Shown here: piece after piece, positions 48,602 to 54,183 of the stretch
Numbering within the stretch: position 1 is the first letter of the stretch
Layout: every line of letters begins with the position of its first letter
DNA from: a virus
Taxonomy: Duplodnaviria > Caudoviricetes
Length of the DNA stretch: 64,000 bases
IMG/VR virus record: IMGVR_UViG_3300028832_000134
Span: 6,086 to 70,085 of that record
Direction: 5' to 3' (one strand)
The notes under the pieces: model-generated
What the model saw: only the letters and a program-made list of their open reading frames with translations
The model's database searches: none
What the model was told of the DNA's origin: nothing
Program-made: the position numbers and the translations under genes

Positions 48602-48845
48602 GAAGCCGGGCCAGGAGATCTTCTGTTTGTTTTGTCACTACATCTTCGAACTGAAAATGCGTAACAAGCATGTTGCCGACAAATCGCTCATCCTTAGTGT
48701 AGATGTTTGCATATACTTCGTCTTTTTTGACCTGCCAGATAGAATCGAGCGACAGCAGATAGCTCTCACCTACTTGAACTTGATCCGGCATGCTATCTCG
48801 AATAGAGATACATTTCACAGGAATAGAATTCAGATAAGTACTCAT
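48579..48845 (-). CDS. Hypothetical protein, tandem paralog A
   Basis: Start set at MSTYLN after GGAGGT. Confidence 0.65.
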   Translation of the reverse strand: MSTYLNSIPVKCISIRDSMPDQVQVGESYLLSLDSIWQVKKDEVYANIYTKDERFVGNMLVTHFQFEDVVTKQTEDLLARLRESFYIE

Positions 48846-48996
48846 TTTGATACCTCCGATGATCGTTGATTTGTGTTGAATCATGTACAATAACGATTCT
48901 ACAACAAAGAAATGCCGCCTATGTGTGGCGGCACATAGGCGGCGGCGCAGAAAGGAACGGAACAGTACAGCACATGGGAGGGCATCGTGTGTACCC

Positions 48997-49072
48997 TGGA
49001 GCAGGAGACGGGACTCGAACCCGCGGCAGTCTGCTTGGAGGGCAGATACTCTACCATCTGAGTTACTCCTGC
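48997..49072 (-). tRNA. tRNA-Gly(UCC)
   Basis: Full cloverleaf, encoded CCA. Confidence 0.95.
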
Positions 49073-49074
49073 AT

Positions 49075-50135
49075 GTTGGCATACTACCGATGATCAATCG
49101 GCTGTCTCCCCTGGGGTATGCCAGCTTCCAGCGGACGCTGTTTTAATACGCGCACGCCTTTGCGTAAGCTTCCATCAAGCTCTAAGAGTTGTTTTTGATC
49201 ACAGGCCGAACCAATCCTGATTTAATTTGATGAAACAATGACGGCCCCTTTACGAACAATCTCTCCGGTTACATTACGCCTGACGCTCAAGTAAGAGTTG
49301 GTCATCGTAGCCTCTGCTCAATTCATGTCCGCTATCCTACTGGGGACGCATCCCCAACCCTCACCGGATTGATTGTCGGAAAGGGGCCGATCACAGCTTG
49401 TGTCATTTTCGATCCATTCGCTCTTGCAGCTCGCTCACAGATCTCCATCTCTGCTGAGGTCTACTTCTGGCACAAGATACTTTATTCTGCACTCTCGTAG
49501 TAAATGTTGCAATGGAGAATTTCCCGGGGTTGTTAGGTACCCGTACAACAATAACCTGCACGCCCCCACTATACTATGTACCATCACACAGGCAGTATAG
49601 TGTCGCTTCCGTCAGATATATCTTTTCACTGACGGTGACGTACTTTTCGTGTGGCGCCTTTTCCCACTTGGCGCCTGGGTCGCATCTCTCGTCAAAGTCT
49701 GCTCAACATGTTACCATGCTTCTTGCCTTCGTCCTTGTTGACAATTTGACAACAAGACGGGCGACCCCCTGAGGCCCAATAATGTTGCCGGATCTACGGC
49801 TCTAACAAGGAATGTGCATGCTCCAACAGATAGTGCTATTCGTATCACTCAGAGCTACACGTTATTACTCCTCGCATCCTTGCTAGATCACATGGGGCCG
49901 CTCTTCTGCGTCACTATCGGCGCGTGCGGCCAGGCTCCGACAGCTGAAATGATCTGCTGCCGGGGCAACTCCCTCCCGATTTCAGTTGCAGCTACGGGTT
50001 ATAATACTGCAACCTAGTGGGGCAACCGGACTTCAGGAGAGCGTCAGCACCACTTGACCTATGTGTTAACTCCCTACACGACTACTTACTTGCCTGGTCG
50101 TCGTCGTATCCGGCCGGCAGTGTGCGTCAATTAGA
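49075..50135 (-). ncRNA. Large structured ncRNA candidate (GOLLD/ROOL-like)
   Basis: About 1.06 kb with no credible ORF between two tRNAs, many nested helices. Confidence 0.5.
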
Positions 50136-50138
50136 CGC

Positions 50139-50222
50139 TGGTGCGGATGACAGGACTCGAACCTGCATGGTCTATCCACTGGAACCTAAATCCAGCGTGT
50201 CTGCCAGTTCCACCACATCCGC
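50139..50222 (-). tRNA. tRNA-Leu(UAG)
   Basis: Cloverleaf with variable arm, CCA. Confidence 0.95.
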
Positions 50223-50225
50223 AAG

Positions 50226-50510
50226 TTAATCAGGAAGATTAGTTTCGCCTACATTGAAGTAGTGAACGGTCTGCGTAACCGTGTACAGATCTCTGCTGGT
50301 CATCGTGTGAGATGCCAGAATGAAATTGTAGGCTTCGCTGTCGATCTCGCAATCCACGGTGCTGAGTACGTCACACCGGAAAGGCTTAACTCCTTCCTCA
50401 TGGTTGAGCATCACCTCGTACCCCGGACGGATGCTGCCAAATGCCGGTGCAGTGGCAATCACGAGAGTACCGTGATCTCTCCTCTTGCAAAGAACCAACT
50501 TGATGTACAT
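50226..50510 (-). CDS. Hypothetical protein
   Basis: Start MYIKLV after GGAGGT and a promoter motif. Confidence 0.6.
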   Translation of the reverse strand: MYIKLVLCKRRDHGTLVIATAPAFGSIRPGYEVMLNHEEGVKPFRCDVLSTVDCEIDSEAYNFILASHTMTSRDLYTVTQTVHYFNVGETNLPD

Positions 50511-52282: not shown

Positions 52283-52323
52283 TTTGAACCTCCAATTTTA
52301 TGATGTTACAATAAAATTAAAGG

Positions 52324-52361
52324 TTCAAAGTCCGATGTGATTACCATTTCACCACATCCCA
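52324..52361 (-). pseudogene. 5' half of tRNA-Gln(UUG), truncated after the anticodon loop
   Basis: TGGGATG TG GTGA-AATGGTAA-TCAC A TCGGA CTTTGAA, then unrelated sequence. Confidence 0.8.
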
Positions 52362-52551
52362 TTATGTAACACAATCAAGCAGCGGATGTGCTGTTGTCCT
52401 AACCTTATCTGCATGATTGTGTGCGAGTGATCGGAGTGGAAGATGTGACTGGTGACATCTTCCGGCACAGCACATTACAGGAGCACCCTTGCCTGTCCCT
52501 CATGTCTGTCTGGACTGAGGTACTATGAACAATTCCGCACAGCGCGCGGCC

Positions 52552-53743: not shown

Positions 53744-54183
53744 TGGTGGACCCGGCGAGAGTCGAACTCGCGTCCAAAATTCCTACATAAACACAATCTT
53801 CTTACGCAGTAGGAAACTCGTTTCTGGCATTCAGTAGGCTGCCAAGGACCTTACCATGACCTTTGTGCCTGTTAGGGCTGCCCAGTTATGGGTTCGCCTC
53901 CACCACCTTGTTTTTCCGACAACAAGGAACGTCATTCAGTACCGCCAGCATAAGTCTGTTATACCTGGCGACCTGCTAATTCTTTGACCTCAAGTGTTTA
54001 CCTAGCAGGAGGTACACTGTTTCGGATCCTGTAGTGCTTAAGCAGCAGCCTTCAGAGAGGAAGCAGCGAAAGCAGGATGGATAGCGATGATAGTAGTGTC
54101 AGTTAATTTGTTGTTGACCCTTAGGCGGTATCATACCTGCGAATTGTGTTTTCTCAGAACCCTGTCGAAACCTTTACGGGCCC
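53744..54183 (-). ncRNA. ssrA: tmRNA; tag (A)DTTIIAIHPAFAASSLKAAA*
   Basis: 5' GGGCCCGTAAAGGTTTCGAC, 3' GTTCGACTCTCGCCGGGTCCACCA with G3:U, resume context AAATTAACT|GAC, tag frame 54100-54038. Confidence 0.93.

Follow-up and report, generated by a model that had tools for sequence, protein, structure and literature searches.

Bacterial and phage RNAs that exceed ~400 nt fall into very few known classes, and RNA-only assembly has only just been shown for GOLLD, ROOL and OLE. ROOL is a large ornate RNA of Bacillota phages and prophages and of rumen and gut samples that is often encoded near tRNA genes; to our knowledge, it has no known protein partner. The species 1 and 2 RNAs of phage T4 are stable, tRNA-like molecules of ~140 nt, which are co-transcribed with the phage tRNAs and released by tRNA-processing enzymes. 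GOLLD RNAs are large (>800 nt), structured and free of open reading frames (ORFs), and they are encoded by phages and prophages, in many cases within a tRNA island or beside one; their 3' part is conserved, their 5' part is variable, and their function is unknown (10.1101/2024.12.08.627333; PMC12286853). Both GOLLD and ROOL, found near tRNA islands, form RNA-only assemblies held together by kissing loops, some of which are palindromic (10.1101/2024.12.08.627333; PMC12286853). In the ROOL nanocage, the kissing loops are symmetric and have conserved loop sequences (PMC12286853).

The RNA candidate described here lies in a 64,000-nt stretch of viral DNA (the window) taken from a 70-kb IMG/VR record of an uncultured gut phage. 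The record has an estimated completeness of 47%, from which the phage genome would measure roughly 150 kb. The phage looks Bacillota-infecting; the cultured phages nearest to it by their ligase are Listeria LIS04, Bacillus SP-15 and a Streptococcus phage, all large Bacillota phages, at ~30% amino acid identity. The genes around the tract are all on the minus strand and encode an NAD-dependent DNA ligase, an SbcC-like ATPase, a UvrD-type helicase and an EndoVII/HNH nuclease; a 96-aa neighbour protein has only two relatives. Clustered in this region are 12 tRNA genes and a tmRNA gene (ARAGORN, Rfam). The tmRNA (53744-54183; Rfam, 78.8 bits) is phage-encoded and sits inside the same tRNA array, and one of the homologous contigs described below, L010, has one too.

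The tract occupies minus-strand positions 49073-50138 (1066 nt). Directly 5' of it is tRNA-Leu(UAG), with an encoded CCA (50139-50222, minus strand; ARAGORN, and Rfam tRNA at 55 bits), and directly 3' is tRNA-Gly(UCC) (48997-49072, minus strand; ARAGORN, Rfam). Both flanking tRNAs are complete, with scores of 55-64 bits. The original prediction had correctly placed its RNA candidate between these two genes, but its limits, 49075-50135, have to be widened slightly to span the whole gap called by ARAGORN and Rfam. The G+C content of the tract is ~50%, compared with ~42% in the neighbouring genes. We number the RNA along the minus strand, such that position p of this numbering (written q) is window position 50139 minus p.

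The tract is non-coding. Each of the six frames contains 9-22 stop codons, and all three kinds of stop are present in every frame; therefore, no genetic code and no recoding would open a frame, which rules out a coding region under another genetic code. Not one ORF of at least 30 aa is intact across all four full-length homologues. As for small conserved ORFs, a 38-aa frame at 49332-49448 was considered and rejected, being broken in the contigs L150 and L018. With six broken frames and no short ORF kept in the four full-length homologues, the claim that the tract has no ORF holds.

We scanned positions 48800-50400 of the window with the 4227 covariance models of Rfam 15, both at gathering thresholds and at a permissive cut-off of E<=10, and recovered only the flanking tRNAs. 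The best other match, to SgrS (14 bits, E 0.31), is a chance match. Permissive scans of the homologous loci in L009, L011, L015 and L018 returned no other Rfam family. At E<=10, the GOLLD model (RF02032; gathering score, 150 bits) has no match anywhere in the 70-kb record, and neither has the ROOL model (RF03087; gathering score, 99.1 bits), for which the control genomes were likewise without a match, so that the weight of this comparison lies in searching the tract itself with the model. OLE was equally without a match at E<=10, and no Rfam match was found in the tract or its homologues for HEARO, raiA, RNase P, tmRNA or the group I and II introns. The RNA is thus not a member of GOLLD, ROOL, OLE, HEARO, raiA, RNase P or the group I/II introns as Rfam defines them. 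Of the two options offered by the original prediction, a large member of the GOLLD or ROOL class or a new class, the former is not supported and the latter survives, as no Rfam family matches. The locus does share features with GOLLD, namely a tRNA-adjacent position in a phage and an identity that rises from 0.60-0.83 in the 5' module A to 0.99-1.00 in the 3' module D, but this is a likeness of context and not homology. A self-splicing intron in a tRNA gene was also considered and rejected, given that no gene halves flank the tract and both tRNAs are complete.

Homologues are present on eight metagenomic contigs from Logan and ENA, which we reached from the neighbouring ligase gene by way of a large collection of proteins. 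The whole tract lies between the same two tRNAs in the window, L150 (91% nucleotide identity), L010 (85%) and L015 (83%). In L018, the first hairpin of the tract (H0) is fused directly to q488 and the RNA runs to ~q940, without q16-487 (modules A and B). L009 and L152, whose ligases are 96% identical in protein to that of the window, have another 350-nt element after tRNA-Leu, followed by a diverged q238-625 (~72%) and an unrelated 3' part. L151, with a ligase protein identical to that of L152, is without the core of q238-487 and has module C1 only. L011 and L013 (ligase, 56% aa) carry the q253-487 core, which starts ~10 nt past tRNA-Ser, without A, C and D.

A covariance model of a 167-nt core, R1, scores 137-199 bits on the contigs carrying the B core and has no other matches; among relatives with 42-46% ligase identity, including five whole IMG/VR genomes of 113-146 kb, it matched none. 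A blastn search of INPHARED (50,697 GenBank phage records) gave no match to the tract, and pattern scans with four invariant motifs found 0 matches elsewhere in IMG/VR. The scan of JGI metagenomes returned 120 loci, all by chance and none matching the B profile, and that of GTDB eight loci, all of them GC-rich chance occurrences and none matching R1. IMG/VR has been screened on a large scale for structured RNAs (PMC10690425); the present RNA is unlikely to have been called in it, because the invariant motifs have no other IMG/VR match.

The tract can be divided into five parts, all on the minus strand. H0 (q1-15; 50124-50138) is a 5-bp hairpin, GCGUC-UAAUU-GACGC, which starts at the first base past the CCA of tRNA-Leu and is kept in the window, L150, L010, L015 and L018. 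Module A (q16-237; 49902-50123) is a variable 5' domain present only in the four full-length members, where it is 60-83% identical; it contains a hairpin of variable length with a 27-nt indel, and its fold signal is weak. The core of module B (q238-487; 49652-49901) is 75-89% identical and is common to the full-length members, L009/L152 and L011/L013; it is backed by the alignment counts and fold energy given below and by the R1 scores. The core is closed by a helix (49877-86 with 49802-11) and contains a conserved internal loop of 16 nt, a multi-helix junction (49763-67 with 49677-81), a hairpin with a GUAA tetraloop (49706-19) and a hairpin at 49653-75 with the conserved loop AGUGGGAAA.

Module C1 (q488-589; 49550-49651), also present in L018 and L009/L152/L151 and 76-87% identical, forms a three-way junction in which 49637-43 pairs with 49558-64 as the closing helix. 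One of its hairpins, 49567-49602, has a covarying stem, and the other, 49609-35, has a 13-nt loop (49616-28) that contains the palindrome GAUAUAUC. Module C2 (q590-940; 49199-49549) combines nested hairpins with a long-range helix (49363-89 paired to 49242-69); identity among the full-length members is 91-94%, and L018 has the module too. Module D (q941-1066; 49073-49198) is a 126-nt tail that abuts tRNA-Gly and contains the hairpin 49077-84 with 49116-23. It is confined to the four full-length contigs, and across these four lineages it is 99-100% identical, with only two substitutions, both G.U-compatible. This is above the conservation of tRNA-Gly (86-99%) and tRNA-Leu (89-93%), and identity drops to 47-81% just past tRNA-Gly. 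Nucleotide identity was rejected as a sign of selection on the RNA: the conservation is regional, because the window and L010 share 89-92% identity over the entire tRNA array (ligase gene, 71%).

Minimum free energies were compared with those of dinucleotide shuffles in four segments, A (q1-237), B (q238-580), C (q488-940) and D (q897-1066). On the minus strand, the z-scores are -2.3, -4.8, -3.1 and -0.2, respectively, and plus-strand folding is weaker than minus-strand folding in A, B and C. Nine coding controls have a mean z of -0.8, and of the seven other ORF-free tracts in this tRNA array, all but one score from +0.8 to -1.3. The sole other array spacer with such a signal, an ORF-free stretch between the EndoVII/HNH gene and tRNA-Met (52283-52551), has a z of ~-4.4 on both strands. 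Segments A, B and C thus fold with energies below those of shuffled sequences, as is generally expected of a structured RNA, and the original prediction is borne out energetically there; segment D does not stand out from its shuffles. The selected fold is that of the minus-strand RNA, because G.U cells outnumber A.C cells in the predicted pairs ~10 to 1 (B, 28 versus 3; C, 41 versus 4) and the sense strand has the better consensus energy (B, -61.4 versus -43.5 for antisense; C, -113.5 versus -82.1).

The fold is conserved, with covariation. Seven sequences of the B core give a consensus of 61 pairs in ten helices, with 94.7% of cells paired. Both sides have changed in 21 of the 61 pairs, compared with 12.5±2.1 in shuffles (0/500 reach 21) and 2-7 after sliding the partners 1-3 columns along; in a five-sequence version of B, 23/78 pairs are compensatory. 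The four sequences of C give 112 pairs (96.2% paired), 20 of them compensatory, compared with 7.4±2.1 in shuffles (0/500 reach 20) and 0-3 with slid partners. Compensatory pairs in related phages are thus above shuffles in both B and C, and the slid-partner controls fall 3-10 times below the observed values, as is generally expected of a structured RNA; the counts are inflated because the helices were predicted from the very sequences counted, and they draw on only ~six independent lineages known.

All six helices listed in the original prediction are present precisely where it put them, and their arms are perfect reverse complements. Five of them lie within helices with compensatory changes; the long-range pairing 49242-51/49380-89, for instance, is part of the C2 helix of 23 pairs, seven of which are compensatory. 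The sixth, 49077-84/49116-23, is in the invariant tail and without compensatory changes, its sole two substitutions both giving G.U. The GAAA-type loops reported at the same time were partly right, in that a GNRA tetraloop, GUAA (49711-49714), is invariant on a covarying stem. The loop AGUGGGAAA is likewise invariant on a covarying stem. The 13-nt loop UGAAAAGAUAUAU (GAUAUAU loop; 49616-28), also on a covarying stem, is identical in seven members, and L151 differs by one base outside the palindrome GAUAUAUC.

Several other helices were considered and rejected. Those joining q20-27, q109-115, q227-231 and q487-492 to q986-1020 over long range show no covariation and have broken pairs. No predicted helix linking A and D, and hence the 5' and 3' ends, has covariation support in the homologues. 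A helix GCGGCC/GGGCC is invariant but broken in L152, and a local hairpin, GGCCGC/GCGGCC, suits L009 and L152 better.

To judge from the contigs, the tract behaves as a mosaic of separable modules and not as one indivisible giant RNA, because L018 is without A and B, L151 is without the B core, and L011 has the B core alone. The single large RNA originally envisaged therefore has to be qualified: a densely paired RNA in a tRNA cluster it is, but its modules occur apart and the long-range helices that would join its ends are without support. The natural deletion variants (without A and B; without the B core) already mark domain boundaries. L151 and L152 encode an identical ligase protein, and their spacers from tRNA-Leu to tRNA-Ala measure 637 nt and 1223 nt, respectively; this difference shows a very recent gain or loss of RNA modules. 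The slot downstream of tRNA-Leu(tag) is a variable site. In L148 (7090-7247) it is empty, and a 274-aa ORF fills it in L002 and L003 (L003:3866-4690). Relative to L148, the present tract is an insertion, because tRNA-Leu(tag) and tRNA-Gly(tcc) are only 5 nt apart there.

A strong intrinsic terminator with a 12-bp stem (8 G-C) and a U-rich tail lies 54 nt past tRNA-Gly (48914-48943, minus strand). Its position is matched in L010 (7407-7436) and L150 (3180-3209), with differing stem sequences, and no sense-strand terminator was found inside the tract in the window, L010 or L150. The end of a small gene lies upstream of tRNA-Leu, where we identified no conserved promoter. Because tRNAs abut both ends of the RNA and a conserved terminator follows tRNA-Gly, with none inside, the simplest reading is that of one tRNA-RNA-tRNA transcript cut by tRNA-processing enzymes. 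The minus-strand transcript would end in a unit of tRNA-Leu(UAG), RNA, tRNA-Gly(UCC) and terminator. The 3' end of the RNA would be set by the RNase P cut at the 5' end of tRNA-Gly, and its 5' end would result from 3' maturation of tRNA-Leu.

The product of the tract is probably a multi-domain structured non-coding RNA that has not been described before, is modular and tRNA-processed, and is present as a free RNA during infection. The original prediction of a non-coding, densely paired minus-strand RNA in a phage tRNA cluster stands, and this RNA is conserved with covariation. It is a new family within a known kind, the large RNAs of phage tRNA clusters. Its modules (H0, the variable A, the core B, C1 and C2, and the near-invariant D) are gained and lost independently by the phages. 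By analogy with GOLLD and ROOL, the RNA would most likely be free and stable during infection, and neither a leader nor a coding element. The near-invariant palindromic loop suggests that copies of the RNA may pair with each other.

Comparison with the described systems reveals both likenesses and differences. Like GOLLD, the RNA is large, highly structured, ORF-free, tRNA-adjacent and more conserved in its 3' than in its 5' part; unlike GOLLD, it has different motifs and helices, gives no covariance-model match, fills the whole gap between two tRNAs and has modules that occur separately. With ROOL it shares the vicinity of tRNA genes and the setting in a gut phage, here one that looks Bacillota-infecting, and its near-invariant palindromic loop may be set beside the kissing loops of ROOL; in contrast, the ROOL model does not match at E<=10, the present RNA is about twice as long, and it is known from only ~six lineages so far. 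The T4 species 1 and 2 RNAs are also non-tRNA RNAs inside a phage tRNA unit, although release is inferred here, and the present RNA differs from them in its size of ~1 kb, its ~170 conserved pairs and the absence of a tRNA-like fold.

The main rival to a single modular RNA is a tandem of two to four independent adjacent RNAs (the B core, C and perhaps A and D), each processed and functional alone. This is a tentative possibility, to which the distribution of the modules lends some weight: the B core is found without A, C and D in L011 and L013, ~10 nt past tRNA-Ser; C is found without A and B in L018; the B core is present in L152 and absent from L151 despite the same ligase protein; C1 begins directly past a tRNA or tRNA-like 3' end in L018 and L151; and the inter-module helices are without covariation support. 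However, the order A-B-C-D is kept in four lineages, and where the modules of the window adjoin, no promoter, terminator or tRNA-like element intervenes. A deletion between short repeats would account for the L018 form, and single large RNAs also gain and lose domains, the 5' half of GOLLD being variable (10.1101/2024.12.08.627333). We regard it as improbable that the tract is a cis-acting structured spacer, which would control the processing, stability or read-through of the flanking tRNAs without accumulating as an RNA of its own. Such a role would suit its position inside a tRNA operon, adjoining both tRNAs, with the most conserved part, D, beside tRNA-Gly. Yet the same two tRNAs do not need the tract in L148, where they are 5 nt apart with no spacer, the B core occurs in another tRNA context in L011, and ~1 kb with ~170 conserved pairs is far beyond the need of any known tRNA spacer.

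The remaining explanations are less probable still. If the tract were what is left of a decaying selfish element (an intron, for example, or a homing-endonuclease cassette) that has no function today, this would account for the variability of the slot after tRNA-Leu(tag), which is empty in L148, holds the 274-aa ORF in L002/L003 and holds a further module, E, in L009/L018; an EndoVII/HNH gene also lies in the same array. We consider such an origin very improbable, since compensatory changes and the 10:1 excess of G.U over A.C show that RNA pairing is under selection, Rfam group I/II intron signals are absent, the flanking tRNAs are whole and no decayed reading frame was detected. The G.U excess also bears on a DNA-level element (an origin, packaging or recombination site with hairpins in DNA), which the many inverted repeats and the strict sequence conservation of D without a fold signal might suggest. 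Pairs that allow G.U and not A.C are strand-specific and RNA-like, the sense strand folds better than the antisense strand, and relatives without the tract (L148 and IMG/VR genomes) still replicate, which makes such an element most improbable. Finally, a divergent GOLLD or ROOL member is largely refuted and barely worth entertaining: the setting in a phage tRNA island and the similar size are shared, as is a 3' part that in GOLLD is more conserved than the 5' part (10.1101/2024.12.08.627333), but neither RF02032 nor RF03087 has a match at E<=10 in the whole record or in the L009, L011, L015 and L018 loci.

Related IMG/VR phages of 145 kb, L002-L008 (ligase, ~42% aa), have a second ORF-free tract of ~1 kb between their tRNA genes, at L003:935-1905, L004:2045-3031, L006:1868-2841, L008:1651-2679, L007:1990-2978 and L002:905-1895. 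Here, 24/265 predicted pairs are compensatory, compared with 12.1±2.2 in shuffles and 3-8 with slid partners, and a block of ~125 nt is 100% identical. The second tract has no Rfam match, no sequence similarity to the present RNA and no match to the B-core model. It resembles the present RNA in belonging to the same phage group, lying between tRNAs, and having a similar size, covariation and a 100% identical block; it differs in its unrelated sequence and its other flanking tRNAs. We consider it a candidate for a second large RNA family.

A more far-reaching reading, which we put forward as a speculation and think unlikely, would make the present RNA the founding member of a further class of giant ornate phage RNAs, the third besides GOLLD and ROOL: excised from a tRNA operon, self-assembling via GAUAUAUC and GNRA loops into an RNA-only complex, and built from cassette domains (B core, C, D) shuffled between tRNA slots. 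Taken with the RNA candidate of the sister phages, a large structured RNA in the tRNA array would then be a general trait of this gut-phage group. On the preferred reading, a modular RNA released from the tRNA transcript, the tract would add a further large structured RNA, unrelated to the known ones, to the same niche, the phage tRNA island, and with it an independent example in which to study what such RNAs do for phages; the hyper-conserved tail D points to a candidate binding site. RNAs of this kind escape the Rfam-based annotation of gut viromes.

Module E, which takes up the slot that follows tRNA-Leu(tag) or another tRNA, is an ORF-free element of ~350 nt that is 92% conserved (L018:547-896 and L009:2442-2815; also in L152 and L151). 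Its 3' end has a T-arm/acceptor-like fold followed by CCA, uncalled by ARAGORN. Positions 473-546 of L018 hold a tRNA-Gly-like gene (Rfam tRNA, 60.6 bits), to which ARAGORN assigns a four-base anticodon (gccg).
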